A stretch of 64,000 bases of DNA from Eledone cirrhosa (taxonomy: Eukaryota), in contig OZ024750.1 in assembly GCA_964016885.1 (NCBI GenBank), positions 30,876,001 to 30,940,000 of the forward strand, given 5' to 3'. Below the pieces are notes generated by a model. That model searched no databases, was not told the DNA's origin, and saw only the letters and a list, made by a program, of their open reading frames with translations. Positions within the stretch are counted from its first letter, which is position 1; every line of letters begins with the position of its first letter. Of the stretch, positions 1 to 63,431 are shown piece after piece. The position numbers were made by a program, and so were the translations under genes.

Positions 1-5
1 CTCAC

Positions 6-95
6 ACTCAGTAGTTCTTTGGACAGTTGGAACAGCTGTCGATGTTACAGGTGCTATTGTTGATGACACAGGTGCTATTGATGATGACACAGGTT
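6..95 (-). CDS. Repeat exon A (unit 1), PTS linker QPVSSSIAPVSSTIAPVTSTAVPTVQRTTE
   Basis: Acceptor ttctag, donor gtgag; 90 nt, phase 1-1; one copy in each of 18 units. Confidence 0.88.
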
Positions 96-3000
96 CTAGA
101 ATTTAGAAAGAATATCTACTTAGTGAATTGTTTTAGACAATTAAAGCAGATCTTTGCACCAGAATAATTGTAAAGAAAATAAAATGAAATATCCTAGATT
201 TCATAGTGAATCTAATCTTTTAAATATTTGAAAATTAGAGCGTTCCACATATCCATAAGTATGTATTTGTAAATTAGAGCGTTCCACATATCCATGAATA
301 AATCTATGTATTTATATGTTGATTTGTCTAGATGTATAAAAGGTACACAGCTCAATGTCAGTATTATGTTTTTCTTTACATAAACATTATTGCTACTAAG
401 AAATGTTTTAAGGGAGATAAGAATAAATGAAGTAAACTAATTGTTTGATTCAATGTGATATTTATTTTGACTGATGGCTGATAAAAGTTCCAGAAAATTT
501 GGAAGGAAATGTAATAAAGTAAAATAAAATCAATATGAATTAGATTTTTTACGAAGAATAAGCTGCTGGTAGAAAGCGATATCATGTAGAAACCACAGAA
601 AATAGTGGAGATTCAAATATTTGTATTAATAGTTGAACATGACATTAAGTTTGAAGAATTATTATTGATACAATATTTATAAACAACATTAATATAATTG
701 TTTCTACTTTAGGCACAAGGCCAGCAATTACCCAGTGCATTACTGGTACTTTATTTTATCGACTCCGTAAGGATGAAAGGCAAAGTCAACCTCATTAATA
801 TAATGCCAGTAATAAACGTATGAATTACAATAGGAAAATTATATATGAATGAGACAAATTTACAAATTTTTAAAGAACTCCCTTCAGATAGATATATCTT
901 TCAATTAAATATATAGTTTCCATTTATGTGTGATGTAGGAATGAAGCACTTGCCTGATTAATTATACATATGAAATATACCAGCTTTTATGTAATTGTTA
1001 GATGTTAACTGGGATTGTTTCAAAATGAGTCCTTATAAAAGAAGTGTAAATTTTAAAAACAAAACTAGAGATCCAAGTTGCAAATTAATGAAGGTTTATT
1101 GGAATTACCAAATATACAGCCATACATATATATTGAAAGATTTATCTACATTGATTCATGAGGAAAGTCATTTAACATAAAACTCACGTTGACTAGTTGT
1201 TGGTACACTTGATACAACTGCTGAAGTGGCTGGTGCCAGTGTTGTTGTAAGAGGATCTGAAGTTTAGGAAAGAAATCACAATAATCAAAATCTATGTGAC
1301 TTTACAAATCAGATGTAAATAAAGATGAGTTGCATCAGGATTAATAGAAATAAATAAATAGATTGGAATTATCACTTACGTTTACAGATTTTGGCAGACA
1401 CAGATACGACCATATCTTCTGTGATATCATCAGCTTCAATTACAATCGTCACAGTTTCTTGACCATTACCACTTGGAATACCAACTGGTCTATCTGGGGT
1501 TGATGTCTGTAGAATGGATTTACATTTTTTATTAATGATAAGATTAAAATAAACAGTGATCGTCAAAAAATATAGACAATGTCGAAATTCCATTAATGAA
1601 TGAAATAGAACACTGTCTGAATTATATGTCCTTATATTCTGTAAATTCTAGAATATCATTATATGAATTGAAATATTAATATAAAGGAAGATACATATGA
1701 AATAAGTAGAAAGAAATATGAAACTTGAATGAAAAAATCACCATCAGATTACCTTGATTGTGTATTCTGTTGAAGGATTTGATAACAAAACAGTATATGA
1801 TTTCACATTTTCATGGTCAACAAGGCTTATTGTTCCACCGGCATTAAGCGTGGGACCAATTTGTAATGTGACAGTTCTTTTAGATTTAGCATTAGTTTTC
1901 CAGCCAACATTTGGTCTCACATCACTAGGTGATCCGACATTAGGACTTAAGGTGATTGCTGTATCAGGGATGAAAGTTTCATCATCCATTGCTTCTGTTA
2001 TCTCACAGAACACTGTTAATTAAAACAATTACATATTATAAAGTGTCAAAATAAAATGATAATAGTACAAATGTTCTATATATGAAGGATAACATATGTA
2101 ATAATTATTGCATTAATACTCACACTCAGTAGTTCTTTGGACAGTTGGAACAGCTGTCGATGTTACAGGTGCTATTGTTGATGACACAGGTGCTATTGAT
2201 GATGACACAGGTTCTAGAATTTAGAAAGAATATCTACTTAGTGAATTGTTTTAGACAATTAAAGCAGATCTTTGCACCAGAATAATTGTAAAGAAAATAA
2301 AATGAAATATCCTAGATTTCATAGTGAATCTAATCTTTTAAATATTTGAAAATTAGAGCGTTCCACATATCCATAAGTATGTATTTGTAAATTAGAGCGT
2401 TCCACATATCCATGAATAAATCTATGTATTTATATGTTGATTTGTCTAGATGTATAAAAGGTACACAGCTCAATGTCAGTATTATGTTTTTCTTTACATA
2501 AACATTATTGCTACTAAGAAATGTTTTAAGGGAGATAAGAATAAATGAAGTAAACTAATTGTTTGATTCAATGTGATATTTATTTTGACTGATGGCTGAT
2601 AAAAGTTCCAGAAAATTTGGAAGGAAATGTAATAAAGTAAAATAAAATCAATATGAATTAGATTTTTTACGAAGAATAAGCTGCTGGTAGAAAGCGATAT
2701 CATGTAGAAACCACAGAAAATAGTGGAGATTCAAATATTTGTATTAATAGTTGAACATGACATTAAGTTTGAAGAATTATTATTGATACAATATTTATAA
2801 ACAACATTAATATAATTGTTTCTACTTTAGGCACAAGGCCAGCAATTACCCAGTGCATTACTGGTACTTTATTTTATCGACTCCGTAAGGATGAAAGGCA
2901 AAGTCAACCTCATTAATATAATGCCAGTAATAAACGTATGAATTACAATAGGAAAATTATATATGAATGAGACAAATTTACAAATTTTTAAAGAACTCCC

Positions 3001-6000
3001 TTCAGATAGATATATCTTTCAATTAAATATATAGTTTCCATTTATGTGTGATGTAGGAATGAAGCACTTGCCTGATTAATTATACATATGAAATATACCA
3101 GCTTTTATGTAATTGTTAGATGTTAACTGGGATTGTTTCAAAATGAGTCCTTATAAAAGAAGTGTAAATTTTAAAAACAAAACTAGAGATCCAAGTTGCA
3201 AATTAATGAAGGTTTATTGGAATTACCAAATATACAGCCATACATATATATTGAAAGATTTATCTACATTGATTCATGAGGAAAGTCATTTAACATAAAA
3301 CTCACGTTGACTAGTTGTTGGTACACTTGATACAACTGCTGAAGTGGCTGGTGCCAGTGTTGTTGTAAGAGGATCTGAAGTTTAGGAAAGAAATCACAAT
3401 AATCAAAATCTATGTGACTTTACAAATCAGATGTAAATAAAGATGAGTTGCATCAGGATTAATAGAAATAAATAAATAGATTGGAATTATCACTTACGTT
3501 TACAGATTTTGGCAGACACAGATACGACCATATCTTCTGTGATATCATCAGCTTCAATTACAATCGTCACAGTTTCTTGACCATTACCACTTGGAATACC
3601 AACTGGTCTATCTGGGGTTGATGTCTGTAGAATGGATTTACATTTTTTATTAATGATAAGATTAAAATAAACAGTGATCGTCAAAAAATATAGACAATGT
3701 CGAAATTCCATTAATGAATGAAATAGAACACTGTCTGAATTATATGTCCTTATATTCTGTAAATTCTAGAATATCATTATATGAATTGAAATATTAATAT
3801 AAAGGAAGATACATATGAAATAAGTAGAAAGAAATATGAAACTTGAATGAAAAAATCACCATCAGATTACCTTGATTGTGTATTCTGTTGAAGGATTTGA
3901 TAACAAAACAGTATATGATTTCACATTTTCATGGTCAACAAGGCTTATTGTTCCACCGGCATTAAGCGTGGGACCAATTTGTAATGTGACAGTTCTTTTA
4001 GATTTAGCATTAGTTTTCCAGCCAACATTTGGTCTCACATCACTAGGTGATCCGACATTAGGACTTAAGGTGATTGCTGTATCAGGGATGAAAGTTTCAT
4101 CATCCATTGCTTCTGTTATCTCACAGAACACTGTTAAATAAAACAATTACATATTATAAAGTGTCAAAATAAAATGATAATAGTACAAATGTTCTATATA
4201 TGAAGGATAACATATGTAATAATTATTGCATTAATACTCACACTCAGTAGTTCTTTGGACAGTTGGAACAGCTGTCGAAGTTACAGGTGCTATTGTTGAT
4301 GACACAGGTGCTATTGTTGATGACACAGGTTCTAGAATTTAGAAAGAATATCTACTTAGTGAATTGTTTTAGACAATTAAAGCAGATCTTTGCACCAGAA
4401 TAATTGTAAAGAAAATAAAATGAAATATCCTAGATTTCATAGTGAATCTAATCTTTTAAATATTTGAAAATTAGAGCGTTCCACATATCCATAAGTATGT
4501 ATTTGTAAATTAGAGCGTTCCACATATCCATGAATAAATCTATGTATTTATATGTTGATTTGTCTAGATGTATAAAAGATACACAGCTCAATGTCAGTAT
4601 TATGTTTTTCTTTACATAAACATTATTGCTACTAAGAAATGTTTTAAGGGAGATAAGAATAAATGAAGTAAACTAATTGTTTGATTCAATGTGATATTTA
4701 TTTTGACTGATGGCTGATAAAAGTTCCAGAAAATTTGGAAGGAAATGTAATAAAGTAAAATAAAATCAATATGAATTAGATTTTTTACGAAGAATAAGCT
4801 GCTGGTAGAAAGCGATATCATGTAGAAACCACAGAAAATAGTGGAGATTCAAATATTTGTATTAATAGTTGAACATGACATTAAGTTTGAAGAATTATTA
4901 TTGATACAATATTTATAAACAACATTAATATAATTGTTTCTACTTTAGGCACAAGGCCAGCAATTACCCAGTGCATTACTGGTACTTTATTTTATCGACT
5001 CCGTAAGGATGAAAGGCAAAGTCAACCTCATTAATATAATGCCAGTAATAAACGTATGAATTACAATAGGAAAATTATATATGAATGAGACAAATTTACA
5101 AATTTTTAAAGAACTCCCTTCAGATAGATATATCTTTCAATTAAATATATAGTTTCCATTTATGTGTGATGTAGGAATGAAGCACTTGCCTGATTAATTA
5201 TACATATGAAATATACCAGCTTTTATGTAATTGTTAGATGTTAACTGGGATTGTTTCAAAATGAGTCCTTATAAAAGAAGTGTAAATTTTAAAAACAAAA
5301 CTAGAGATCCAAGTTGCAAATTAATGAAGGTTTATTGGAATTACCAAATATACAGCCATACATATATATTGAAAGATTTATCTACATTGATTCATGAGGA
5401 AAGTCATTTAACATAAAACTCACGTTGACTAGTTGTTGGTACACTTGATACAACTGCTGAAGTGGCTGGTGCCAGTGTTGTTGTAAGAGGATCTGAAGTT
5501 TAGGAAAGAAATCACAATAATCAAAATCTATGTGACTTTACAAATCAGATGTAAATAAAGATGAGTTGCATCAGGATTAATAGAAATAAATAAATAGATT
5601 GGAATTATCACTTACGTTTACAGATTTTGGCAGACACAGATACGACCATATCTTCTGTGATATCATCAGCTTCAATTACAATCGTCACAGTTTCTTGACC
5701 ATTACCACTTGGAATACCAACTGGTCTATCTGGGGTTGATGTCTGTAGAATGGATTTACATTTTTTATTAATGATAAGATTAAAATAAACAGTGATCGTC
5801 AAAAAATATAGACAATGTCGAAATTCCATTAATGAATGAAATAGAACACTGTCTGAATTATATGTCCTTATATTCTGTAAATTCTAGAATATCATTATAT
5901 GAATTGAAATATTAATATAAAGGAAGATACATATGAAATAAGTAGAAAGAAATATGAAACTTGAATGAAAAAATCACCATCAGATTACCTTGATTGTGTA

Positions 6001-9000
6001 TTCTGTTGAAGGATTTGATAACAAAACAGTATATGATTTCACATTTTCATGGTCAACAAGGCTTATTGTTCCACCGGCATTAAGCGTGGGACCAATTTGT
6101 AATGTGACAGTTCTTTTAGATTTAGCATTAGTTTTCCAGCCAACATTTGGTCTCACATCACTAGGTGATCCGACATTAGGACTTAAGGTGATTGCTGTAT
6201 CAGGGATGAAAGTTTCATCATCCATTGCTTCTGTTATCTCACAGAACACTGTTAATTAAAACAATTACATATTATAAAGTGTCAAAATAAAATGATAATA
6301 GTACAAATGTTCTATATATGAAGGATAACATATGTAATAATTATTGCATTAATACTCACACTCAGTAGTTCTTTGGACAGTTGGAACAGCTGTCGATGTT
6401 ACAGGTGCTATTGTTGATGACACAGGTGCTATTGATGATGACACAGGTTCTAGAATTTAGAAAGAATATCTACTTAGTGAATTGTTTTAGACAATTAAAG
6501 CAGATCTTTGCACCAGAATAATTGTAAAGAAAATAAAATGAAATATCCTAGATTTCATAGTGAATCTAATCTTTTAAATATTTGAAAATTAGAGCGTTCC
6601 ACATATCCATAAGTATGTATTTGTAAATTAGAGCGTTCCACATATCCATGAATAAATCTATGTATTTATATGTTGATTTGTCTAGATGTATAAAAGGTAC
6701 ACAGCTCAATGTCAGTATTATGTTTTTCTTTACATAAACATTATTGCTACTAAGAAATGTTTTAAGGGAGATAAGAATAAATGAAGTAAACTAATTGTTT
6801 GATTCAATGTGATATTTATTTTGACTGATGGCTGATAAAAGTTCCAGAAAATTTGGAAGGAAATGTAATAAAGTAAAATAAAATCAATATGAATTAGATT
6901 TTTTACGAAGAATAAGCTGCTGGTAGAAAGCGATATCATGTAGAAACCACAGAAAATAGTGGAGATTCAAATATTTGTATTAATAGTTGAACATGACATT
7001 AAGTTTGAAGAATTATTATTGATACAATATTTATAAACAACATTAATATAATTGTTTCTACTTTAGGCACAAGGCCAGCAATTACCCAGTGCATTACTGG
7101 TACTTTATTTTATCGACTCCGTAAGGATGAAAGGCAAAGTCAACCTCATTAATATAATGCCAGTAATAAACGTATGAATTACAATAGGAAAATTATATAT
7201 GAATGAGACAAATTTACAAATTTTTAAAGAACTCCCTTCAGATAGATATATCTTTCAATTAAATATATAGTTTCCATTTATGTGTGATGTAGGAATGAAG
7301 CACTTGCCTGATTAATTATACATATGAAATATACCAGCTTTTATGTAATTGTTAGATGTTAACTGGGATTGTTTCAAAATGAGTCCTTATAAAAGAAGTG
7401 TAAATTTTAAAAACAAAACTAGAGATCCAAGTTGCAAATTAATGAAGGTTTATTGGAATTACCAAATATACAGCCATACATATATATTGAAAGATTTATC
7501 TACATTGATTCATGAGGAAAGTCATTTAACATAAAACTCACGTTGACTAGTTGTTGGTACACTTGATACAACTGCTGAAGTGGCTGGTGCCAGTGTTGTT
7601 GTAAGAGGATCTGAAGTTTAGGAAAGAAATCACAATAATCAAAATCTATGTGACTTTACAAATCAGATGTAAATAAAGATGAGTTGCATCAGGATTAATA
7701 GAAATAAATAAATAGATTGGAATTATCACTTACGTTTACAGATTTTGGCAGACACAGATACGACCATATCTTCTGTGATATCATCAGCTTCAATTACAAT
7801 CGTCACAGTTTCTTGACCATTACCACTTGGAATACCAACTGGTCTATCTGGGGTTGATGTCTGTAGAATGGATTTACATTTTTTATTAATGATAAGATTA
7901 AAATAAACAGTGATCGTCAAAAAATATAGACAATGTCGAAATTCCATTAATGAATGAAATAGAACACTGTCTGAATTATATGTCCTTATATTCTGTAAAT
8001 TCTAGAATATCATTATATGAATTGAAATATTAATATAAAGGAAGATACATATGAAATAAGTAGAAAGAAATATGAAACTTGAATGAAAAAATCACCATCA
8101 GATTACCTTGATTGTGTATTCTGTTGAAGGATTTGATAACAAAACAGTATATGATTTCACATTTTCATGGTCAACAAGGCTTATTGTTCCACCGGCATTA
8201 AGCGTGGGACCAATTTGTAATGTGACAGTTCTTTTAGATTTAGCATTAGTTTTCCAGCCAACATTTGGTCTCACATCACTAGGTGATCCGACATTAGGAC
8301 TTAAGGTGATTGCTGTATCAGGGATGAAAGTTTCATCATCCATTGCTTCTGTTATCTCACAGAACACTGTTAAATAAAACAATTACATATTATAAAGTGT
8401 CAAAATAAAATGATAATAGTACAAATGTTCTATATATGAAGGATAACATATGTAATAATTATTGCATTAATACTCACACTCAGTAGTTCTTTGGACAGTT
8501 GGAACAGCTGTCGATGTTACAGGTGCTATTGTTGATGACACAGGTGCTATTGAGGATGACACAGGTTCTAGAATTTAGAAAGAATATCTACTTAGTGAAT
8601 TGTTTTAGACAATTAAAGCAGATCTTTGCACCAGAATAATTGTAAAGAAAATAAAATGAAATATCCTAGATTTCATAGTGAATCTAATCTTTTAAATATT
8701 TGAAAATTAGAGCGTTCCACATATCCATAAGTATGTATTTGTAAATTAGAGCGTTCCACATATCCATGAATAAATCTATGTATTTATATGTTGATTTGTC
8801 TAGATGTATAAAAGGTACACAGCTCAATGTCAGTATTATGTTTTTCTTTACATAAACATTATTGCTACTAAGAAATGTTTTAAGGGAGATAAGAATAAAT
8901 GAAGTAAACTAATTGTTTGATTCAATGTGATATTTATTTTGACTGATGCCTGATAAAAGTTCCAGAAAATTTGGAAGGAAATGTAATAAAGTAAAATAAA

Positions 9001-43358: not shown

Positions 43359-43404
<46 letters not shown>

Positions 43405-52400: not shown

Positions 52401-55400
52401 AAATGAAAACAGGGGAGGTAATCAACTGAATTATTAAAGGTGCTATGTTACCAACCTAGGGCGAGAGTTCTCATGTTACCATTGCTGCTCTATTGTGTTA
52501 CTAGCCAGAGCATATGAATTATGTCGATAAAAGTATAACTTATTTTTCCCATAAAACTAACTGGCAGGAGACCCAGGAGTAGACCGCAAACAATATGGTT
52601 GAATAACATCCATAAGCACAGCTGGTCTTGCTTGGGGATTCAGCTGGATCAATTAGAGATGGTTGGTTCTGAAAGGACTAGCTGGAAGGAGTACTTGAGA
52701 ACTTTTCATCCACTACCCTCCAGGGAATAAGTGGGGGAAGTAGTGTTAGTAGTAGTAGTAGTAGTAGTAGTAGTAATGATGTTAGGGAGACAAAAGTGTG
52801 GAGAGTGGAGCTTCATACATTTATGAGCATGTGCAACTTTTGGTGAGCTTGCTAGAGCCCACAATGGTGAACTGTCAGGCACACAAAGTGTGAAGTGCTA
52901 AACTACTTGTTTCATTTCCACTTGACCTGATACTGCCAACAAAGATCCTGAGTAACGTGATAACTAGAGAGAAAACATGGCCGTACAGGTATGACAAAGA
53001 AACAAAAGCTCAGTTGTCACAATGGAAGCAGACAATGTCACCAAGGTCCAAAATAGCAGCATGTCAGATACAGAGCACAATCAAGGTAATGCTGATTGTT
53101 ATCTTCAACAACTGAGGTATTGTGCATCAGGAATAGGTACCAGAAGGACAAACAGTTATGAAGGAATACTACCAGAAAGTTCTTCAATGTCTTCATGATG
53201 CAGTTCAATGCAAGAGACCAGATCTGTCTGTGGACCTCACAAAACTGACAGCTGCATCATGACAATGCTTTTGTTCATTTATTGTAGCTGATCCAAAGAC
53301 ATTTCACTCATTCACCAGGGTCCCAACTTTCAAAACATGGCTCCTTTTGACTTCTGGGTGTTTCCAAAACTGAAGATGTCACTCAAAGTCTCCCAACTTT
53401 GATAGCTGAATGGAGTTCAACAGTGGAGCCTAAGAGACATTCTGGAAGAAGTATTCCAGATATGCTTCAAATAGTGAAAGGATCACCAAGTTATGATAGT
53501 GTAGAAGTGTAAGGGTCCTACTTTTCCCAGCTCAAGATTGGATACTTTTTTTGACAAACCTTATATAACATTTTCTCAATTGAATGCGAAACTATTACAT
53601 TATATGAAGAGGCAAACATCACTGATAAAGCATATATACGTATATATTTCGAGATAATTTTAACTATTACATTGAAGTCAGTTGTGCTGTATTTTATACT
53701 TCTGGTTACTCTACTTCTTTTAAAGGCTCTGATATTGTTTATGAGAGTCATAGAAAGAAATCTATGAAACTATTAGTGATTGATTGCCCATATTGAAATT
53801 CATAAATAGTTATTTAAATATTTAAACGATGTGAATTTCATTCAAATTATTTTATTGTTTAATTGCTGTTTCAAGAAATTCCTCTCAAAATCAATCAATC
53901 CTGTCCGATTCTGTTGCCTATGAAATGAAATTGAATTAAACTGCTGTCTCATATCATTTCCATAATGGACAAGAATATGACCTACAAACTAATCTTATTA
54001 AAAATAATAGAGTTCCCATTCTCTTGTCAATAATTCCTGAAGAATAGAATTGTGACTGCCTAGCTATTCAGGACAAATATGACTACAAGTAAACTTTGAA
54101 TTAGCTTTATTGTTCTCAATGTTTAACCCTCTTCCCATTCGAGGGAGATAAATCCTTAATCTGGGATGAGACATGTTGTGACTCATTCTCTGCCACCAAC
54201 CTTGTTGCTTTGGCTACAAACCTGCAATTTCCACACACAAAGCAGAGGAAGATAAGCAAATACTGGGGCTTGTCTGCTTGCTTCCTTTTCAGGCTGATTG
54301 CTGTCATGACCCCCTTCTCTGCTTGGTCCCTACACTGCCGATTTCCTCTGCAAAATTGGAAAGACAGCAGCGTGACTCAGGAAGGAGCCCCATGAGGTTG
54401 GGTGGCTGTTGCAGCAGATCCCACTTGCCATTCTCTGTGGCAATGCCTTCCCCATTCTGTATGTGTGATACACCCAAAACACTACCCAGACTCGGGTGTA
54501 GAGTTTGTCCCTTCCTCCCTCTCCTTTGTTGCTTCATTCTCTTTTTTTTTCTTATCCTTCTTTCCTTTTCCTTTTTTTGTTTCATTTAACTATTATGAGA
54601 CCAAATCATTGTTTAATAATTATTATGAGACCAGATCATTGATTGATAATTATTATAACACCAGATCATTGTATAATAATTATAACATGAGATCATACTA
54701 TAATAATTATTATAACAACACTAGATCTTTCTATGATAATTATTACAACACCAGATCTCTCTATAATAGTTATTTTAACACCAGATGATTCTATAATAAT
54801 TAATATAGCACCAGATGATTCTATAATAACTATTATAACACCAGATCAGTCAACATTAAAGCTGAACCTTACCAAGATCCCACTGGACTGTCAGACCAAT
54901 GTTGGTGAAAAGAGAAAAGAAAAATTCAGTCTTCTTAATGGAGATACCATCTGATGTAAAACCTCGGTCAGAAATTTCTTGGCCATCTATTGTAGGTACC
55001 TTGCCTTGCACAAAGTTAATGGTGTTACCAAAAATATGGATGTTAATATCTTTTGTACATGTTACTGCTGGATATCCACACTTGACATTTTTTATTGTTA
55101 TACTGAAAGTGCCATCCTTTGCTTCAGACATGATATATTCACAGTTTCCTTGAAAACTGTAATGGCTGCCATCAAAAGTTGAATGATGAGGTTCACCAGA
55201 TGCCCAGCATGTAGCTGAAAAAGAAAAAAAATGGAAATCCTTTAAAATGAAGTTAACAATATCAGTTGGAAACAGTTGCTTCTGACAGGACCCACTGGAA
55301 GGAGTGTTTGAGGACTCTGCCCCTATGGCCCTCTCAGGAATAAGTGGGTGAAAAAGAAGTTGATGTGGATGATGAAGTCATCTTAATTATTCATTTACAA

Positions 55401-58400
55401 TTTATTATTTCATGCTTGTATTGGTGGATTGACCATATTGGGAGAGCAACAGACATGTTTTGTGGCATAGAGTTACAGCCTTTTTGTGTTCTGAGTTCAA
55501 ATCCTGCCAAGGTTAGTTTTGCCTTTCATCCTTAAGGAGTGGATAAAATAAAGTACCAGTAATGCACCAGTGCATTACTGGTACTTTATTTTTTTTCGTT
55601 CCGTTTTCGTTTAAAAATGACAAAACCCTGGACGGGGGAATCACTCGGCTCGTCCGTCGATGAAGAGCGCGGCTATCCGTGTGAACTGATGCGAATTACA
55701 GGACTCAGTGAACATCGACACCTCGAATTTAATTGACTTTCCTCTTTGCCAAAATTGTTGGCCTTGTGCCAAAATCAGAAACCATTATTTTATGTTTGTA
55801 TAGGTAGAAGAGCTTTTCATAATCAGATTAAATGAATATATTAACAGTAACACTAACATTGTGTGATTCATAATAGAGGTGTATATGAAGGCATATAGAA
55901 TGTTTTTTTATACATAACCATATTGCATATTTCTTCATTTCGCTGAAACTCATGGAGGAGATGACGAAGGATCGTGACAAGTGGAGAGATGTTGTGCTAA
56001 ATAGGACCCGTCCCACCCTCGCAAGCAGGGAAAAGCGGACGTTAAATGATGATGATGATCACATTGATTGCCACTCAGCCATGTACCTTAACTTTTTAAA
56101 TATTTATAATAAAATCTCTAAATAAATTTGAGTGACTTCTGTCCATCACACAATATGTGTGTGTATGTGTATGTAAAAGGAAGGAAGGGGATGGTGAAAA
56201 AACTATTGCAAAAAGCAGCTGGTGTTCCATTTGCTACGCTGTGTGTGAGTGTATGTGTATGTGTGTGTTTGTGTAAATGTATGTGTATTTGTGTGAATGT
56301 ATGTCTGCGAGTGTACATTTTTGTAAGTGTGTCTGTGTTTGCATGTTATATTTATATATTCATGCATATAAATGTAATCGTATGCACATACACACATACA
56401 TATACACATACACACATGCATATACACATCAGTATGTTTAAACAAATTCTGGAACATAACATTTTTCAAATCTGACCTGGGCAGTTATCTGATTTTCGTT
56501 CATCTTTCCATATTCCATTGACGCATGACCTGCAGAAAAAAACACACAAAAAACAGGAATTAAATGAAAACATTTTATAAACAAAATTATTTTATAAAAC
56601 AAAGAAATTTAGCTAATATATTTCCAGTTAAGTGTCTCATGGTGCTCAGCTTATTATACTTTGCCAAAGCAAACTAAATATTTCAAGATGAAGAAAGTAA
56701 AATAAATTTAACAGATTAACAATGTAAATATAAAATTTATTCAATTTATTTGAGATTTTTTTAATTAATAGTTTTAGTATTGTATTTGTGTTTAGGAGTT
56801 GCTGAACAAAAATACTGAGCATATTAAATGACTGGTAGTAAAGCAGCCAAATGAAAAGACATATTTACCAAAAATTGATATTTATTTTTAATTCTATTCA
56901 TTGGCTAGATATATAACTAACAGCCTTCTCCATTAACTTACTATACTTTCATTAGTTTCCTTGTACATAGACATAATCAAACTGAATGAGTCAACTGTTT
57001 TAAGTACTTACAGATCTCTACATCCAATTTTAAGTTTGCTACTTGCAAGCATCCAAGTATCTCCGTATTGACATGGGCACTCATCAGGTGAAACACAGGT
57101 TCCCTATTTTTAAATTAAAAGAATGGATTTTTAATCAATAAATAATGGTTTTTGATTTAGGCACAAGACCAACAATTTTGGGGGAGGGAAAACTTGATTA
57201 AATCAATCCAAGTGCATTACTGGCACTTAACTTTATCAACCCTGTAAGGATGAAACTCAAAACAGCTGTAACAATATGCCAGAAAGCATTTTGTCCAATG
57301 TACTGATACTGCTAATCCACCACCCTTAAATATATAAAATAATGGTTTATATAAAATATATAAAATAAAGGCCAACAATTTTTTGAGGAAGTGAAAGTTG
57401 ATTTAACTGATCTCAGGACATTACTGGTACTTTATTTTATCAACCCCGTAAATATGAAAGGTAAAGCTACCCGGCGGGTTTTAATTCAGAATATATATGA
57501 TTATAACTATATGCCACAAAGCATATTGTCCAACGCTCTACTGAATACTGCCAATCCACTGCCCTTTTTAATCAATAAATAATTATTTCTTATATAGGCA
57601 CAAGGCCAGCAATTTTGGGGGACGGGAAAGTCGATTAAATCGACCCCAGTGCATAACTGGTACGTTATTTTATCGACCCCATAAGGATGAAAGGCAAAGT
57701 TAACCTCGGTGTGATTTCAACTCAGATCATAAAGGGCCATAACTCTATGCTGCAAAGCATGGCATCCGACCCTCTACCAATACTGGCAATCATCATCATT
57801 ATCATTGTAATATCCATCTTCCACTCTAGCATGGGTAGGATATATATATATATCCTAGCTACAGTGGAAGATGGACGTTAAATTATGATGATGATGATGG
57901 TGATGATGGTATATATAAATATATTATTTATTCTTTATCATTAACATTAATAATATTTTTTTTTTTTTAAGAAGAGCCTCAAATTTCATATAGCTTAGGG
58001 CCTCAGCAGGTCAAGGTCCTGTCCTGCCAATAATTGAATGTATTAATATTTAAAAACGAATAAAAATCTAAACTATAATAAAGGAAAGTCTGCGGGATTG
58101 TGTACGGTTTATTTTTTTTTATCCCGTTTGTAAAATAAGTTGGATTACTTTGAATAAATAATGAATAAACATTACATAATTTATCTACTAAACTTCGTGG
58201 CTGTTCATTAAATATATTTTGTTTATTTAAAGATTCGCTTCTTTAAAGTTTCTGAAATGTCAACACTTCCGGTAGCGATCGCTTAAATAAACATACTTAT
58301 TTTCCGTCACTAATTTTCTCCTAATGTAGTTTATATATAATATCGTCTTTTTTAATGTATCATGGATTACGTTACTGATTACATAAGACAGTGTAACGCA

Positions 58401-61400
58401 GTCTTCGTTCAATTTCTATGTATTATATGTGGATTGGCAGTATCGGTAGAGGGTCGGACGCCATGCTTTCCAGCATAGTTACGTCCCTTTACGATCTGAG
58501 TTCAAAATCCCGCCGAGGTTGACTTTGCCTTTCATCCTTACGGGGTCGATAAAATAAAGTACCAGTAATGCACTGGATAATTGCTGGCCTTGTGCCTAAA
58601 GTAGAAACAATTATATATTGTCAATTATGATTTTATTTAATGTATCATATCTACATGTATATATACTTGCGTATATATACAAGATACACACTACACATGC
58701 TAGCAGAAAACCACCCGAACGGTGGTTTTTCTGCTAGTAAATATAATAATTAGAACTGTATATTTTTTCTCCTACCTACATTCACTGATTATTGAAACAA
58801 CAATATGAGCAAATGAGGAAACCTCTACATAGATAGTAAATATGTTAGACATAGTGTCCTATTTTACCAAACCACATTCTAACTTATAAATATAATACAC
58901 ATAAATCAAAGTGAGATAAAAAAAATAATAAACAAAAATAAACCAATTCATCACTAACTGCGTCAATTAGTTACGCATCACAAAGGTCATTGGAAATTTT
59001 TGAGGCAAGCCAACACGCTCACAGCATTACTGTGGGTAACGGCAAAGCTAAGGCGCTGAAACAATCAGGCACCCTCACGTACATCACCTGACACCTCTGT
59101 AAGGCAAGTCGCTAATGATGACAATAAATTCTCTGTTAGCAGCCCAGCTCAACCAAACATCTTAAATGCCACAGATTCGAAAAAATTGTTATTCGATAGT
59201 TCCTGGTATTTTAGGATTTTATTCCATTTGGCTAGGTTCCTAGCAATAATTAATTGTATCTATTATTTGTGTTTATAAGAGCAGTGGATTGGCAAAGTCA
59301 GTGGAGCGACGGACAACATGCTTTGTGGCATAGAGTTATGGCTTTTTATGTTCTGAGTTCAAATCCCAACGAGGTTAGCTTTGCTTTTCATCCTTATGGG
59401 TTCCATAAAATAAAATACCAGCAACATACTGGGTTGATTTAATTGACTTTCCCCTCCCCCCAAATTAATCTATAGTTTAACTTAAAATATATAGTATACA
59501 ACCTGGTTGTACTTAATATTTTACAGTTACTAGTGAAAAGCAAAACTTACATTTGGAGAGAGAACTGAAGAAGGTGGACATCTACAGCCTTCAAATTCAT
59601 TTTCAAAAATTATGCACTCTTCTGGTTTGGCTAAAGTCAGACAAGTTTCTTGACATCCAGTGGCATTTGTAACCCAGATTTGGTTCTTTGGACAAACAAT
59701 TTCTTCTAATGTTGGAACACAATTCCATTTTCCTCGAATGCATGTACTGAAAGAAACATTTAATAAAAGATCAGGGGGAAATTTTGACTCTTTCATTACC
59801 ATATTTCTAATGAAAGACACTGTCTATGTATAACCCTTTCATTACCATATTTCTAATGAAAGACAGTATCTATTATCTTCATTTAACTTTGCTTTTCCTG
59901 TTACCAAGGGTTCAATTGGTCTAAATGAAGCAAGTCAGTACTAATGTGGAGCCATGGACCTTCCAAACAGGCAGGGGAAGGGGTTAGCATCTCACTTATG
60001 TATAGTCTTACATTCTATCGAGTTCACAGGAGAGGTCTTTGACACAATTGAAGAGTCCTTCCAACCCTTTGTTTGGCAGGATGCTCTTCCTATCACCAAC
60101 CACTTTACAGGATGTACTGGGTACATTTATTGTGTAGATCACCAACACTAAGGAGGCCGTTATGTTCTTGACATGACTGAAGGGACATCACCCTTTTTCT
60201 TTTTTTGTCTATTTTTTTCTGAATAATTTTGAAAATAATAAAGAATTTGTAAAGAGATAACAAAATAACAAATTTTCTCAATATTAATATGAGGTTTAGA
60301 ATACAACTTAAAGGTTCTTGCATAGAATTATGTTGGAAGGGATTCAGATACATATAAACTCTTTAAAATAAATGGTTTTGTATCATAGAACCAGAGGCAG
60401 TTTAGTATCAAAAGGGTTAAGTTGCATTAATTAGGCAAATAATTGATATTCATCAAACCCGATGAGAAGTTATCTCCTTATGTAACTCACCAAATAGAGC
60501 ATTGTTCATGTTATAAGACAAAACAAAATGGCTCCCATAATTCCCTTTTCTATATAAATGGCCTCAAGCATCATCTTATTTAACACAGCCTTCTGATTAC
60601 ATTGAATAAGCCATCACTGTTGACCAAGCAACATTTTATATCTACTGAAGTGGGGACTTCTGACCCCAAGACTGGCCGAGGGGTCGCATCTCACTTAGGT
60701 ACAGTCATAGATTCTATCAACTGTACAGGAGAAGTTATATCTTTTGACATAAACATGCTTAATGGTGTGATAGTGTTCATCATTGTAATATGCCTATAGA
60801 CTGTAATAAATATATTTCTGGTTCCTTATATATGCAATGAAGCTAAATATACTTAAACTAAGTATATTTCGGTTATGACGATGAGTGTCCCAATTAATCC
60901 GATCAACGGAACTGCCTGTTTGTGAAATTAACATGTAAGTGACTGAGCATTCCACAGTCATGCATACCCTTAATGTAGTTCTCATGGAAATTCAGCGTGA
61001 CACAGAATGCAACAAGAGTAGCCCTTCAAACTCATTTTTTCCAGGTGAGTGGATTAGAGCTATGTGAAATAAAGTGCCTTGCTCAAGGACACAATGTACC
61101 ACCAGGAATCGAACTAATGACCTTATGATTGTAAGCCTAATACCTTAACCATAAAGCCACATGACTTCAATTTTAAAAACATGTTACACAACAGTAATAG
61201 ATAACAGGATTAGATTATAATTATTAAACTGTCATTATGAAAAATAACTTTTAATATTTACCAATCAAGTCGTTTTCGGTGTATTATTTCTCCAGCTTTG
61301 TAATGTTTCTGTTCAAATTTGTTGAAGCATGTACATTTACTAATGGGTACACAATTTCCCTGGTTATCCAACAGTGATCCCTCAGGACAACGACACCCAA

Positions 61401-63431
61401 ATACACATCCTTCATCACATGTTCCTTTATCTTTGGCAAGGTCATTACAAGAGGATTGACAAGTAGATCCACAATAAATATATTTTTGACCAGTTCCAGA
61501 GGGACACTTTACAACTACAATACAGAATAAAGTAGGACTCTTGTTAATGATATAGCATAAATATTTTAGTAAAGCATATTGAAACAAGTGCAGAAATCAT
61601 ATTTATTATCATCATCCTTTTTATGTTCATTTCTCTATACTAGCATGGGTTGGACTGGTCCTTTCCAGCACAGCTTCCTTATGCTCATTGCATTCCTTCA
61701 TGATTTCCACTGTGTGGTTCAGCATTCTGAGATATGGCTCTCACCAATTCTGCCCAGGTTTTCCTTGGCTTTTCTCTACTACAACTTCTTTCCACTGGAA
61801 ACTCCTGGCATTTCTTCCCAATGGTCATTCCTTCATATGCATCACTTGTACATACCAGTGCAGTCCTCTTTCTTGCACACTACATCTGATTCCTCTTATA
61901 CCCAACTTTCTCTTAATTCATCCATGCTTTGTTGTTCATGCATGTTAGCATTGTACTTCCATCAAAGCATGCTCAATTAATTTCTCTTCAGCTTTCACAT
62001 ATCCCTTGTCTTTACTGCCCATGTCTCACAAACGATGCAACATTGTACTTCTCACACAGACATCATACAGCTGCCCTTTCATTCATAGAGAGCACTACCA
62101 GTGTACTTCCCACACAGGTACCATACAGCTGCCCTTTTGTTCGCAGAGAACCTTGATTTTAAAAACTCATTGTTGGATGATAATTTCTTATCGCTTCTTT
62201 TCCAACAATATTTCCAAGAGGTTTCTACATGGTTTATTTCAGTAATAATTACGTTCTCACAATTAATAAATGAGGATTCTATCATTTTTCAACAGGTAAT
62301 TTTTTTTATTTCTTTATCCTGTAAGGCCAGTGGATTGGCAGTATTGGTAGAGTGTCAGACATTTTGCGGCATATAGTTATGTCCTTTTATGTTCTGAGTT
62401 CATATACCATCAGGGTCAATAAAATACAGAGCCTGTAATGCACTGGAGTCAATTTAATCGACTTTTCCTTTCCCAGAAATTATTGGCCTTGTGCCTAAAT
62501 TTAAAATCATTATAGCTGTTGTTGTTGCAGTTGTTGAAATGTTACATTTGATATACAAGTTTGATTATATATCTTGCCAACAAACATTTGCAGTTCACTG
62601 TAGTTGCACTATTAAATTAGAAACCATTATTCTTTATTCTGTGTTTTGCGATCCTCTTCAATAATAAATAAACCTATATTTATAATTTTGCAACATAATC
62701 TCAACTGCTCACATACATTTTACAAGTCATTACATATTAATCATATTGATATTTAATTGACATAAATTATTGTAATGTTCAGCATATATTAATTAGTAAA
62801 TATTTAGTGTTATCTGTGAATAAAATTATAGTCAAATGCTAAGCATAGATATAAACTATGCTTACTATAAAGTAGTATAATAAATATGAAGCATTGTGAG
62901 ATATGTAATATATTACTGATAAGTTTTAGAAAGCTGGTAAAATACCATAGAAAAGTAGAAAAGGCAAATGATGACAAACAAAACAAAGTAATGTTTTATC
63001 CCAGTGTATTTCAACATGATATTTCAAGGCTATTACTCTCATTTCAAATGTGGTGCTGAAACAGCTTCACATGATACTGTGGCAAAATATTACTTTATTT
63101 GTATTTTTCTACTGCATTGTACCAGCTTTTTGAAAATTATTGGTCTATTATGCTTACTATATTGTTCTTGCATATAAAAGGTATTTTACTTACGACATAA
63201 GTTATTAAGAGTACTGTTTGAATGCCAGTCAACTATTATTTTATTTTCAGCACATTCTTTGGAATAAGATTGCATTGCAGTACAAAATCCTTTTGAACTA
63301 AATATTTCACTTGCACATATATCTCTCATGCACAGATCATAAAATGGCTCAATAGGGATGGTATCCCGACAACTTAAAAATGCAGGGCTTTCTTGAAGGT
63401 AGCCACAATACCGTCTAGCAGTTATTTCATT
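6..63431 (-). CDS. Partial multi-exon gene: giant secreted VWD/C8/TIL mucin-like (SCO-spondin/hemocytin-like) protein with LDLa and a tandem discoidin-like+PTS array; both ends outside the window
   Basis: 83 exons with GT-AG boundaries whose phases chain without a stop. Motifs: [10 protein letters not shown] and GLCGNFD (VWD), GGDCECLC (C8), TIL cysteine pattern, CDGNFDCFSGSDE (LDLa). Summed exon length about 11,626 nt. Confidence 0.9.
699..792 (-). mobile_element. 5'-truncated SINE family 1 fragment in the array intron (present in units 1-14)
   Basis: Matches the 3' half of full copies at 46441 and 58428. Flanked by direct repeat cattaatataat (687-698, 793-804). Site is empty in units 15-17. 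Confidence 0.85.
1188..1256 (-). CDS. Repeat exon B (unit 1), PTS linker HPLTTTLAPATSAVVSSVPTTSQ
   Basis: Acceptor cttcag, donor gtgagt; 69 nt, phase 1-1. Confidence 0.88.
1380..1506 (-). CDS. Repeat exon C (unit 1), C-terminal part of the globular module TSTPDRPVG...VVSVSAKICK
   Basis: Acceptor ctacag, donor gtaagt; 127 nt, phase 0-1; lies in ORF 1372..1593. Confidence 0.9.
1753..2012 (-). CDS. Repeat exon D (unit 1), N-terminal part of the discoidin-like module LFCEITEAMDDETFIPD...EYTIK
   Basis: Acceptor taacag, donor gtaatc; 260 nt, phase 1-0; lies in ORF 1744..2013. Confidence 0.9.
3871..4130 (-). CDS. Repeat exon D, unit 2
   Basis: Same translation and splice sites as unit 1. Confidence 0.88.
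5989..6248 (-). CDS. Repeat exon D, unit 3
   Basis: Same translation and splice sites as unit 1. Confidence 0.88.
8107..8366 (-). CDS. Repeat exon D, unit 4
   Basis: Same translation and splice sites as unit 1. Confidence 0.88.
10225..10484 (-). CDS. Repeat exon D, unit 5
   Basis: Same translation and splice sites as unit 1. Confidence 0.88.
12343..12602 (-). CDS. Repeat exon D, unit 6
   Basis: Same translation and splice sites as unit 1. Confidence 0.88.
14461..14720 (-). CDS. Repeat exon D, unit 7
   Basis: Same translation and splice sites as unit 1. Confidence 0.88.
16579..16838 (-). CDS. Repeat exon D, unit 8
   Basis: Same translation and splice sites as unit 1. Confidence 0.88.
18697..18956 (-). 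CDS. Repeat exon D, unit 9
   Basis: Same translation and splice sites as unit 1. Confidence 0.88.
20815..21074 (-). CDS. Repeat exon D, unit 10
   Basis: Same translation and splice sites as unit 1. Confidence 0.88.
22933..23192 (-). CDS. Repeat exon D, unit 11
   Basis: Same translation and splice sites as unit 1. Confidence 0.88.
25052..25311 (-). CDS. Repeat exon D, unit 12
   Basis: Same translation; unit has a +1 intronic A. Confidence 0.88.
27170..27429 (-). CDS. Repeat exon D, unit 13
   Basis: Same translation and splice sites as unit 1. Confidence 0.88.
29289..29548 (-). CDS. Repeat exon D, unit 14
   Basis: Same translation; unit has a +1 intronic A. Confidence 0.88.
29660..29770 (-). 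CDS. Repeat exon A, unit 15 (111 nt, one extra PVSSTIA)
   Basis: Three copies of the 21-mer acaggtgctattgttgatgac; same in unit 16 (31655-31765). Confidence 0.85.
31284..31543 (-). CDS. Repeat exon D, unit 15
   Basis: Same translation as unit 1. Confidence 0.88.
33318..33577 (-). CDS. Repeat exon D, unit 16
   Basis: Same translation, one silent change. Confidence 0.88.
35329..35588 (-). CDS. Repeat exon D, unit 17 (first globular module in transcript order)
   Basis: Two substitutions versus other units (IGPT>IGST, EYT>EFT). Confidence 0.88.
35700..35789 (-). CDS. Repeat exon A, partial unit 18
   Basis: 90 nt, same splice sites as other A exons. Confidence 0.85.
36219..36287 (-). CDS. Diverged exon B copy SHLTSTLAPGTSALLSSIPTTSQ
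   Basis: 69 nt, acceptor tttcag, donor gtgagt, phase 1-1; homologous to exon B. Confidence 0.82.
37068..37806. mobile_element. Truncated LINE (RT C-terminal region) with internal inversion
   Basis: Plus strand ~37424-37806 reads DIVLV...VEDFLYLGAKI...ESVLLNGSEIWTLTK. Minus strand ~37423-37068 reads MVDGCYTRMLRMALNI...RRLRLA and on to the 3' tail. Confidence 0.8.
37940..39045 (+). mobile_element. SINE-like family 2 element hosting an expanded minisatellite
   Basis: Tail ttaggaagggcatccagctgtagaaaaccagcc...catgctagcgtggaa...gatgat matches reverse-strand copies at 46630-46885 and 50193-50470. Confidence 0.7.
37959..38842. repeat. 48-bp minisatellite, 18 full copies plus a partial copy
   Basis: Unit ccagaccacactgtaaagtgatcttgtaggtgtcacaacaaaagacac, head to tail with no spacers. 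Confidence 0.97.
39167..39286 (-). CDS. Exon: unique Ser/Thr-rich segment VSTAYSTVVSTQEISS...TTLLSSYAT
   Basis: 120 nt, acceptor ttccag, donor gtaata, phase 1-1. Confidence 0.75.
40390..40535 (-). CDS. Exon: end of E/VWC-like module + LDL-receptor class A domain
   Basis: CTCNGGNMTCDICKCLENEFQCEDGHCINKSKICDGNFDCFSGSDENYC; 146 nt, phase 2-1, donor gtaag. Confidence 0.92.
42533..42778. mobile_element. Putative piggyBac-like MITE
   Basis: Ends in ggtaatgaaagggttaa. Related sequence occurs in opposite orientation at ~59831-60420 (taaccctttcattacc...aaagggttaa). Confidence 0.4.
42786..42882 (-). CDS. Exon: TIL end/E module GGKCIPEESCPCLYEKKIYPSGTKVFVDSCKN
   Basis: 97 nt, acceptor ctgcag, donor gtaag, phase 1-2. 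Confidence 0.9.
43400..43842 (-). mobile_element. RTE-like LINE 3' fragment
   Basis: MLHGSETW...RRLRWYGHVM...RGRPRKTW...DRDKW with a (tga)n tail. Confidence 0.88.
44194..44340 (-). CDS. Exon: TIL domain (D3) AVMCEEPKVYRECGPANPRTC...CTEGCHCPPGQVED
   Basis: 147 nt, phase 1-1, GT-AG. Confidence 0.92.
44510..44695 (+). mobile_element. tRNA-derived SINE family 1
   Basis: A box tggcagtatcgg, B box gagttcaaatcc, body ctttgcctttcatcct...aaagcaccag. Confidence 0.85.
45395..45850 (-). mobile_element. Degraded LINE 3' fragment (same type as 37068-37806)
   Basis: ILLYSLELWTL...RLDDTNTRML...LALAGHV in ORF 45524..45790. Confidence 0.6.
45937..46046 (-). CDS. Exon: C8 domain second half CALGGDCECLCTALANFARRC...WRNNNRC
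   Basis: 110 nt, phase 2-1; matches the mucin/vWF D3 C8 pattern. Confidence 0.93.
46441..46620 (+). mobile_element. tRNA-derived SINE family 1
   Basis: A/B boxes and body as in other copies. Confidence 0.88.
46630..46885 (-). mobile_element. SINE-like family 2
   Basis: Homologous to 37940-39045 but with only ~2 internal units. Confidence 0.7.
46943..48499 (-). mobile_element. RTE-like LINE, 5'-truncated, disrupted reverse transcriptase
   Basis: ORF pieces NYRGIKL...QFGFVPGKGTTD...DLEKAFD-like, GVHQGSVL...YADNLVL, FRYLGD...RRLHWYGHV; frameshifts present. Confidence 0.93.
48508..48692 (-). mobile_element. tRNA-derived SINE family 1
   Basis: Reverse complement of the family consensus. Confidence 0.85.
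49227..49366 (-). CDS. Exon: C8 domain first half FFPARRQWAMESC...FAVC...YYDDCMYDAC
   Basis: 140 nt, phase 0-2, acceptor tttcag, donor gtagg. Confidence 0.92.
50193..50470 (-). mobile_element. SINE-like family 2
   Basis: catgctagcatgggttagacggg...acagctggatgcccttcctaac...ctttacagtgtg. Confidence 0.7.
50546..50740 (+). mobile_element. tRNA-derived SINE family 1
   Basis: Near full-length copy with A/B boxes. Confidence 0.88.
51187..51710. repeat. Long polypurine (GA6-8)n low-complexity tract
   Basis: About 520 bp almost entirely A/G. Confidence 0.95.
51781..51989 (-). CDS. Exon: VWD domain second half GTRIYIHL...QGLCGNFDHDTTNDF...FAFSW...HPCD
   Basis: 209 nt, phase 1-0, donor gtaag. Confidence 0.95.
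52040..52228 (-). mobile_element. tRNA-derived SINE family 1 (internally deleted)
   Basis: ggcacgaggccagcaattttggg...ctgatactgccaatccac. Confidence 0.8.
52790..53565 (+). mobile_element. Degraded Tc1/mariner transposase remnant
   Basis: YDKETKAQLSQWK...SPRSK, IKVMLIV, GIVHQE.VPEGQTV.KEYYQKVL, LHHDNA, MAPFDFWVFPKLK; TIR-like end ggatacttttttgacaaacct; stops and frameshifts. Left boundary approximate. Confidence 0.85.
54590..54850. repeat. Degenerate ~30-bp minisatellite, about 9 copies
   Basis: Consensus tattataacaccagatcattctataataat. Confidence 0.85.
54873..55214 (-). CDS. Exon: VWD domain first half [29 protein letters not shown]...GLTVQWDL
   Basis: 342 nt, phase 1-1, strong polypyrimidine acceptor, donor gtaag. 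Confidence 0.96.
55423..55790 (+). mobile_element. SINE family 1 copy interrupted by a fold-back and an rDNA-derived insert
   Basis: SINE 5' part runs to 55567; 3' part resumes ~55728 (tttaattgactttcc...ggccttgtgcc). Confidence 0.8.
55622..55727 (+). pseudogene. 5.8S rRNA fragment (5' two-thirds)
   Basis: atcactcggctcgtccgtcgatgaagagcgcggc...gcgaattacaggac...gaacatcgaca..tcgaa matches conserved 5.8S motifs (CGATGAAGA.CG, GAATTGCAG); no 18S or 28S nearby. Confidence 0.88.
55938..56058 (+). mobile_element. RTE-like LINE extreme 3' end
   Basis: LKLMEEMTKDRDKWRDVV, then gcaagcagggaaaagcggacgttaaa(tga)n. Confidence 0.8.
56477..56529 (-). CDS. Exon: end of E' module LSCVNGIWKDERKSDNCP
   Basis: 53 nt, phase 2-1, acceptor ttttctgcag, donor gtcag. 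Confidence 0.85.
57012..57103 (-). CDS. Exon: TIL' end/E' module GTCVSPDECPCQYGDTWMLASSKLKIGCRD
   Basis: 92 nt, phase 0-2, donor gtaagt. Confidence 0.9.
57140..57790 (-). mobile_element. Three tandem SINE family 1 copies
   Basis: Approximately 57140-57325, 57365-57565 and 57585-57790, each ending in a variant of tactgccaatccac. Confidence 0.82.
58067..58737 (+). mobile_element. Putative non-autonomous Helitron with nested SINE (58428-58615)
   Basis: A|TC start (tctaaactataataaagg), 3' hairpin accacc-cgaac-ggtggt, CTAG|T end. Confidence 0.6.
59280..59465 (+). mobile_element. tRNA-derived SINE family 1 (diverged)
   Basis: gtggattggca...ctgagttcaaatccc...ctttgcttttcatcc. Confidence 0.78.
59551..59746 (-). 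CDS. Exon: E2 end + TIL' CTCIRGKWNC...CPKNQIW...CQETC...EGCRCPPSSVLSPN
   Basis: 196 nt, phase 2-0, GT-AG. Confidence 0.92.
60865..61162 (-). mobile_element. tRNA-derived SINE family 3 (V/Meta-core-like)
   Basis: Reverse strand shows a tRNA-like head (gtggctt..tggttaag, agttcgattcc) followed by gtgtccttgagcaaggcacttta. Confidence 0.7.
61262..61514 (-). CDS. Exon: TIL (D2) + E module VKCPSGTGQKYIYCGSTCQSSC...CVFGCRCPEG...CVPISKCTC
   Basis: 253 nt, phase 1-2, full 10-Cys TIL pattern. Confidence 0.94.
61605..62150 (-). mobile_element. Degraded RTE-like LINE 3' fragment
   Basis: Recognisably similar to 43400-43842 and 46943-47420. Confidence 0.7.
62328..62512 (+). mobile_element. tRNA-derived SINE family 1 (internally deleted)
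   Basis: gtggattggcagtattggtagag...ggccttgtgcctaaa. Confidence 0.78.
63194..63431 (-). CDS. Exon: C8 domain (D2) NEITARRYC...FLSC...PFYDLCMRDIC...FCTAMQSYSKEC...VDWH...LC
   Basis: 238 nt, phase 0-1, acceptor ttttcag, donor gtaagt. Confidence 0.93.

Follow-up and report, generated by a model that had tools for sequence, protein, structure and literature searches.

A tandem repeat in the octopod Eledone cirrhosa probably forms the bulk of a single gene in which 55 near-identical, intron-containing cassettes, likely spliced serially, encode a secreted mucin of the SCO-spondin-like type, about 13,800 residues long. Each cassette would contribute one bead with a predicted discoidin fold and one linker that is likely to be O-glycosylated. 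The original prediction, made from the window (the stretch of 64,000 nucleotides at G000:C10:30,876,001-30,940,000), had proposed a beads-on-a-string, mucin-like cephalopod gene that grew by amplifying a whole cassette together with its introns, and our analysis supports this. To it we add the fold of the bead, the SCO-spondin-like C terminus, a classical PTS exon, and paralogous arrays. How the exons chain together, their phases, the domains, the uniformity of the units, and the arrays in the paralogues were all read from the genome sequence; the fold of the bead was predicted by modeling.

The gene is on the minus strand, and its tandem array, whose main period is 2,118 bp, fills the first 36 kb of the window. 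What looks like a 2.1-kb satellite had been predicted to be a four-exon, in-frame cassette encoding 182 amino acids, in at least 17 units, and both claims held. The window contains 17 copies each of exons D (260 nt), C (127 nt), and B (69 nt) and 18 copies of exon A, which amounts to 17 complete units plus exon A of unit 18. All 69 exons are bounded by AG and GT, and they follow each other in the order A-D-C-B, with phases 1-1-0-1 and without a stop codon. One cassette is thus 260 + 127 + 69 + 90 = 546 nt, or 182 amino acids. The predicted exon lengths were correct for D, C, and B, which are fixed, but not always for exon A, which is 90 nt in 16 of the 18 copies in the window (111 nt in two) and in 47 of the 55 copies in the whole array. 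The other copies are 111 nt (2), 132 nt (2), or 174 nt (4), so exon A varies by whole 21-nt steps. As a control for chance, none of 20,000 shuffles of intron DNA contained an open 182-codon frame. At the level of sequence, the four-exon cassette array with in-frame exons is a real feature.

Fourteen exons upstream of the array (63431 to 36219) connect to it in frame. They encode, in order, C8-2, TIL, D', VWD3, C8-3, TIL3, LDLa, and two linker exons (Table 1), with Pfam matches to C8, TIL, VWD, and LDLa. Combined with the whole array, the 14 exons give 10,901 codons and no stops. The predicted join to a D2-D'-D3 and LDLa region was therefore right as to the frame, but the window contains only the end of D2; VWD1 and VWD2 are located upstream of the window. 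There, 15 more exons match the Argonauta hians model, beginning with its start codon and covering EGF, VWD1, and VWD2. Two other simple repeats lie in introns of the window, one a tract of A-rich 8/9-mers and the other with a 30-bp unit (51232-51694 and 54585-54848), and the D3-region introns contain what look, by eye, like decayed LINE fragments (46960-48400 and 43420-43830).

Table 1. Features of the gene, in window positions unless a contig coordinate is given
Feature	Position	Strand	Details
15 exons (start codon, EGF, VWD1, VWD2)	upstream of window, to G000:C10:30,971,671	-	
C8 of D2 assembly, exon	63194..63431	-	PF08742, E 1.4e-15
TIL (D2) and start of E module, exon	61262..61514	-	PF01826, E 1.3e-11
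D' region (TIL'-E'), 3 exons	56477..59746	-	59746-59551, 57103-57012, 56529-56477; 68-77% identity to Argonauta hians model GAB1608825.1
VWD3, 2 exons	51781..55214	-	55214-54873, 51989-51781; PF00094, E 6.7e-21
C8-3, TIL3, E3, 4 exons	42786..49366	-	49366-49227, 46046-45937, 44340-44194, 42882-42786
End of E3 and single LDLa, exon	40390..40535	-	PF00057, E 4.6e-11
Intronic 48-bp minisatellite, 18.5 copies, between the two linker exons	37955..38842	.	non-coding
Thr/Ser-rich linker exons	36219..39286	-	39286-39167 and 36287-36219; enter array in phase 1; 36287-36219 is a diverged exon B
Cassette array, window part	6..35789	-	whole array G000:C10:30,911,789-30,797,152
Example exon A, PTS linker of 21-nt repeats	2124..2213	-	90 nt, phase 1-1
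Example exon D, first two thirds of bead	1753..2012	-	260 nt, phase 1-0
Example exon C, last third of bead and closing cysteine	1380..1506	-	127 nt, phase 0-1
Example exon B, PTS linker	1188..1256	-	69 nt, phase 1-1
Example B-A intron	96..1187	-	1,092 nt, with 106-bp SINE-like piece

The whole array comprises 55 units over 114.6 kb, contains no gap, and ends at G000:C10:30,797,152. Its 220 exons all have AG/GT ends, and its 10,163 codons run without a stop and encode 18 distinct unit peptides. On its 3' side is a single PTS exon of 4,203 nt (1,400 amino acids, of which 830, or 59%, are P, T, or S), followed by one diverged terminal bead that is 65% identical to the array bead. Beyond this bead are two 48-nt linker exons; exons for TSP1, TIL, and VWC; and a weak cystine-knot exon. 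There are about six TSP1 domains (five exons identified by Pfam and one domain that is split over two exons). Pfam finds EGF, VWD, C8, TIL, LDLa, TSP1, and VWC each in single exons. The last exon matches PF00007 (cystine knot) with E = 0.002 and 18.8 bits, which is under the cut-off of 24, and its position fits.

From the ATG, 260 exons join in frame to encode 13,486 amino acids with no stops. Adding six more exons from the tail gives a model of about 13,800 amino acids, at least 266 exons, and about 215 kb, in which two joins of the C-terminal tail are without a placed connecting exon. The N terminus is hydrophobic and is homologous to the N termini of the A. hians and Octopus bimaculoides models. 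The order of domains is EGF, three VWD, LDLa, 55 repeats of linker plus bead, the PTS exon, the diverged bead, TSP1/TIL/VWC, and the putative cystine knot. The array accounts for about three quarters of the protein, and each unit consists of an acidic bead of 127 amino acids and a linker of 55 amino acids. The linker contains 22 Ser or Thr residues (53% P/T/S) and no N-glycan site. In the tail, at G000:C10:30,780,685 and 30,779,185, the 48-nt linker exon is doubled along with its introns, in a 1.5-kb unit, which is a second small cassette duplication in this gene. Upstream of the gene, a 50-bp tandem array covers at least 34 kb (G000:C10:31,026,000-31,060,000). We considered whether this array (31.026-31.060 Mb) might be part of the gene, but it is a plain satellite that lies outside it.

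Pfam had no match to the bead, and F5_F8_type_C was found in 0 of the 19 members of the bead alignment; the O. bimaculoides model (XP_052821913.1) has no Pfam match to F5_F8_type_C either. One of 19 fragments matched UBC_like, which we treated as chance, as we did the sole sequence match in the PDB (E = 0.34). With exon D alone as the query, a word-based protein search yielded none of 91 candidates, and the ESM Atlas gave nothing above 0.80. We then ran AlphaFold2 on this alignment of 19 rows and modeled the bead of O. bimaculoides. The predicted bead is a beta-sandwich of 127 amino acids (pLDDT of 91.9) with one cysteine at each end. The best matches from both Foldseek (E = 2.8e-5) and VIA-align (Z = 12.8, rmsd of 3.2 Å, 127 aligned residues) were neuropilin b domains, the C2 domains of factors VIII and V, and the discoidin domains of DDR. 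The top 15 VIA-align matches were discoidin-type, and the next were DOC and CBM32 domains (Z = 11.7-10). Because these follow so closely, we regard the assignment to the galactose-binding superfamily as secure and that to the sub-family as likely. Among ESM Atlas neighbors, those having a family were F5/8 type C clusters (0.84-0.85), which we take as a lead only. The bead is about 30 residues shorter than its structural matches. Based on the predicted structure, it is best read as a shortened and diverged F5/8 type C (discoidin) domain.

Relatives of this protein are present in the databases as automatic predictions rather than transcripts, and, as had been predicted, the gene is fragmented there. 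Searching with the VWD3 exon returned "SCO-spondin-like" models from Argonauta and Octopus (4 of 47 candidates), with 84-91% identity in VWD3. The A. hians model (GAB1608825.1) has just the head and stops just past LDLa, and the "SCO-spondin-like" model of O. bimaculoides (XP_052821913.1) has the head, LDLa, and two beads and then stops. When the region after LDLa in O. bimaculoides was used as the query, 2 of 3,916 candidates were found, including a "mucin-3A-like" protein from O. sinensis (XP_036356575.1). This is a headless, separate array with 16 bead motifs and periods of 173 and 152 amino acids. Both XP_052821913.1 and XP_036356575.1 align colinearly with the spliced unit, including over its D|C and C|B joins. 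None of these three models unites the head, the array, the PTS exon, and the tail, and none of them names the bead.

Our beads are about 99.6% identical to one another, those of O. sinensis are 85% identical to one another, and the two sets are about 57% identical to each other. The array thus predates these species and is homogenized within each of them, a case of concerted evolution. In E. cirrhosa, the identity of about 99.6% includes the introns. Still, 48 of 54 whole units are distinct, and none of 53 pairs of neighbors are identical. Both the variants and the length classes of the introns are clustered along the array, and a 106-bp SINE-like piece in the B-A intron, present in 14 units of the window, was amplified along with the cassette. 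The differences between units and their clustering would fit with unequal crossing-over and gene conversion. In one of the 55 units (unit 31), the D-C intron contains a 2.3-kb LINE-like insertion (G000:C10:30,848,687-30,846,134); its open frame of 666 codons resembles, by eye, the reverse transcriptase of a 5'-truncated RTE-type LINE.

Length changes in the exons are confined to whole 21-nt steps in exon A, while the introns carry indels of 1-290 nt. Across the 220 array exons there are just one variant donor type and two variant acceptor types. Within the array, pN/pS is 0.43 (9 synonymous and 12 non-synonymous alleles; p = 0.038). The density of variants does not differ significantly between exons (22 of 456 sites) and introns (94 of 1,466 sites; p = 0.26), so the clean frames are due in part to recent amplification. 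Also, comparing the array bead with the terminal bead gives a dN/dS of 0.68, or weak constraint. Given these two results, selection in this young array is weakly shown.

The bead is also present at three further loci in this genome, and the same loci are the next three best matches to VWD3. In the regions examined, there are 56 beads in our gene (on C10), 47 on C2, 22 on C5, and 4 on C26. The C5 paralogue (G000:C5:67,486,000-67,547,500) has 11 higher-order units of 5,777 bp, each with two beads from two-exon cassettes; all 44 exons have AG/GT ends and encode 3,464 amino acids without a stop. CAI9718652.1 from O. vulgaris, which stops after four beads, is its likely counterpart. The 47 beads on C2 (G000:C2:401,518,000-401,767,000, with one assembly gap at 401,589,203) fall into at least three sequence classes and are encoded by four- and then three-exon cassettes. 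Most of these units have exons of 266/136/57/45 nt, which is a four-exon design like the window's. Linkers occur as a pair in 29 of 43 intervals and as a single 33-nt linker in 9. The distance from D to C ranges from 499 to 7,343 bp, and 46 of 47 D exons and 44 of 46 C exons passed the splice-and-frame check. As read from the sequence, fixed exon lengths amid such variable introns are the best sign of selection on arrays of this kind. The C26 paralogue has 4 beads with 49 PTS micro-exons of 36 nt between them (G000:C26:13,598,730-13,550,423), and its tail is TSP1-TIL-VWC-knot, as in our gene.

In a tree of 26 D-exon peptides, the beads group mainly by gene, with some long branches and one unstable member (C26_13606339). 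The AU test gave p = 0.015 against a single clade of our majority units and those of O. sinensis, a group that was named after the tree had been seen. More VWD-type loci are at G000:C26:13.865 Mb; at C2:396.7, 396.85, and 399.9 Mb; at C4:1.52-1.55 Mb, with three near-identical matches; and at C10:30.612 Mb, near our gene, where the match has internal stops. Tentatively, these arrays raise the possibility of an undescribed octopod family of giant mucins, where a shortened discoidin domain that Pfam does not detect replaces CysD as the repeated cross-linking bead. The paralogues would have been lengthened independently by copying of exon-intron cassettes of different designs (four exons, 55 times; two exons, 22 times; four and then three exons, 47 times; or 49 micro-exons), and, given the phase-1 symmetry of all units, copy number and exon skipping may tune the chain length and the gel mesh for each gene and species.

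To classify the protein, we compared it to known types. Like VWD-type gel-forming mucins, it has three N-terminal VWD-C8-TIL units, as the exons match the whole Argonauta head (3 VWD, 3 C8, and 4 TIL stretches), and it has long PTS regions (the 1,400-amino-acid exon and the 55-amino-acid linkers). The C8-3 domain keeps the cysteines of its GDC-x-C motif. However, the loop with the interchain cysteine of D3 (MUC2 Cys1130 or VWF Cys1142; its role is described in bioRxiv 2020.03.08.982447) is a gap in the aligned Argonauta orthologue, and the exon in the window is equally short. With this loop missing, polymerization via D3 cannot be identical to that of MUC2. There is no CysD (WxxW) domain of the MUC2/MUC5 type; instead, the repeated bead is blank in Pfam and has a predicted discoidin fold. 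The order of VWD (three), LDLa, TSP1, TIL, and putative cystine knot is that of SCO-spondin, but with one LDLa and about six TSP1 it lacks the LDLa cluster and the long TSP1-rich region. No VWD exon was found 3' of the array, so it does not have the 3+2 arrangement of VWD domains of hemolectin/hemocytin, as outlined in PMC4948705. On the features tested, the protein falls outside the MUC2/5 and hemolectin types and is not a full SCO-spondin. Its domain content suggests that it likely works like an invertebrate gel-forming, SCO-spondin-like mucin.

Alternatively, the architecture might be correct but the product might be an internal matrix protein, similar to SCO-spondin or hemolectin, that acts in haemolymph clotting, in a neural or glandular fibre, or in an egg coat, with the array as a spacer and without a mucus gel. 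LDLa, the TSP1 repeats, and the putative cystine knot do match SCO-spondin, the database models are named "SCO-spondin-like," and the protein lacks one of the cysteines that link the chains of the mucin D3 dimer. In favor of a mucus product, proteins of the SCO-spondin-like and mucin-like kinds are reported from the skin mucus of octopuses (PMC11431876, PMC10138644) and from limpet pedal mucus (PMC7333891). But we searched for short motifs of our gene and its orthologue in the skin-mucus peptides of O. vulgaris, and none were present in the part of the peptide table of PMC10138644 that was covered. The mucus peptides in that part belong to other family members; one of these is similar to the D-[IV]-R-P...W motif that is conserved in the bead. 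On the other hand, a block of 1,400 amino acids with so much Pro, Thr, and Ser, along with 55 linkers, is typical of mucins; a single LDLa and so few TSP1 are not what SCO-spondin has; and in any case the gel-forming mucin-like proteins of invertebrates are grouped with SCO-spondin (PMC4948705). We consider an internal matrix protein to be somewhat unlikely.

It is less probable still that the cassettes of the array are optional, with most transcripts skipping many units to give a ladder of shorter isoforms in which the 55-bead form is rare. The cassette boundaries, exons A and B by themselves, the D+C pair, and the giant PTS exon are all phase-1 symmetric, so skipping would stay in frame. Also, the O. 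sinensis model includes units with and without an A-like linker (173 versus 152 amino acids), and in chicken Muc13, whose PTS domain has one exon per repeat, that domain was proposed to be alternatively spliced (PMC1552070). But the splice sites are near-identical and intact in all 55 units, which means that no unit is marked as optional, and the short introns within units (111-247 nt) would favor linear processing. Finally, it seems very improbable that the array is a recent, functionless, run-away amplification (a satellite that carries exons by chance) or an over-expanded assembly. The units are near-identical, introns included, so there was little time for stops to accumulate, and the diversity of exons and introns is not significantly different. 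However, O. sinensis has an orthologous array at 57% identity, paralogous arrays of different ages keep their frames, and the array is free of gaps, with mostly distinct units and no identical neighbors. In addition, in collapsed short-read contigs, the unit is 45-67 times deeper than the unique flank. This check is rough, as it is from three runs of one sample that is possibly the assembly's own source; the runs behave as DNA, with uniform cover of introns and no splice joints.

Under the preferred reading of a serially spliced mucin, unequal crossing-over and gene conversion would have enlarged the array and maintained its uniformity. Each cassette starts and ends in phase 1, so the frame is kept at any copy number. 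The VWD head and the cystine-knot tail may polymerize the protein end to end, and the linkers, which are rich in Thr, Ser, and Pro, along with the long PTS block, would form a hydrated, extended backbone. Set at regular intervals, the beads might offer weak, multivalent binding to glycans or to neighboring chains. CysD domains play this role in vertebrate mucins. Copy number would then set the chain length and the cross-link density of the gel, coat, or glue.

This analysis provides a full-length model for a class of proteins that is known in the databases as fragments only. At over 1.4 MDa before sugars, and with so many exons, the protein would rank among the very large animal proteins. The bead is a compact, foldable module that might cross-link the mucus, coats, or glue of cephalopods. 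With four paralogous arrays that differ in age and unit design, this one genome is material for studying the concerted evolution of spliced repeats. More broadly, kilobase "satellites" that are masked in mollusc genomes can be coding. What stands out is the scale, the unrecognized bead, and the differing repeated solutions in the four paralogues.

The original prediction overstated the novelty of the gene, as its ingredients were already known. Repeat units that contain introns are known from LPA KIV-2 (PMC6314250), Muc13 (PMC1552070), and MUC2 (PMC3549977); F5/8 domains are known from lophotrochozoan mucins (PMC4948705); and a RefSeq model predicts 16 units in another octopus. Our searches of open-access papers turned up neither the full-length architecture nor the family-wide pattern, and no account of this architecture in cephalopods. 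The predicted contrast with vertebrate mucins, whose PTS repeats are mostly in one exon, is less sharp than drawn because our gene has a classical PTS exon as well. We did not use human MUC19 as a precedent for a multi-exon repeat because its central exon is reported to be without introns (PMC13345508).

The mode of growth resembles that of human LPA, whose KIV-2 unit (5.6 kb, two exons) is present in 1 to more than 40 copies and makes up most of the coding sequence, with established allelic variation in copy number (PMC6314250). In both genes, a folded domain was multiplied via a multi-exon tandem unit that includes introns, is phase-symmetric, and has near-identical copies. However, the domains and the proteins are unrelated, and our unit has four exons, including a mucin linker. 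In chickens, Muc13 has one exon per repeat (PMC1552070), a design that the 49 micro-exons of the C26 paralogue match, and MUC2 has 10 cassettes with CysD over exons 32-45 (PMC3549977). As described in those papers, the chicken units are PTS-only or irregular, whereas ours is a domain-plus-linker cassette that is repeated 55 times with its introns. In flatworms, the repeat arrays of adhesive genes were hidden from short reads (PMC6745481).

As for the protein, F5_F8 domains are characteristic of lophotrochozoan mucin-like proteins, for which the nearest vertebrate group is SCO-spondin (Lang et al. 2016, PMC4948705). Like ours, the proteins of Lang et al. have three VWD-C8-TIL units and then F5/8-type domains beside PTS regions. 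In contrast, our F5/8-like domain is shortened (127 amino acids), is not seen by Pfam, and is present in 56 copies; our gene has no CysD and no second VWD group; and such an array does not appear in the available text of Lang et al. (PMC4948705). The octopod orthologue models share the VWD head, the bead, and the joins of our gene, and all are fragments. Vertebrate SCO-spondin has the same order of domains, namely VWD (three), LDLa, F5/8-like, TSP1, TIL, VWC, and cystine knot (PMC7333891), but our protein gets its length from discoidin-like beads and PTS regions and not from TSP1 repeats.
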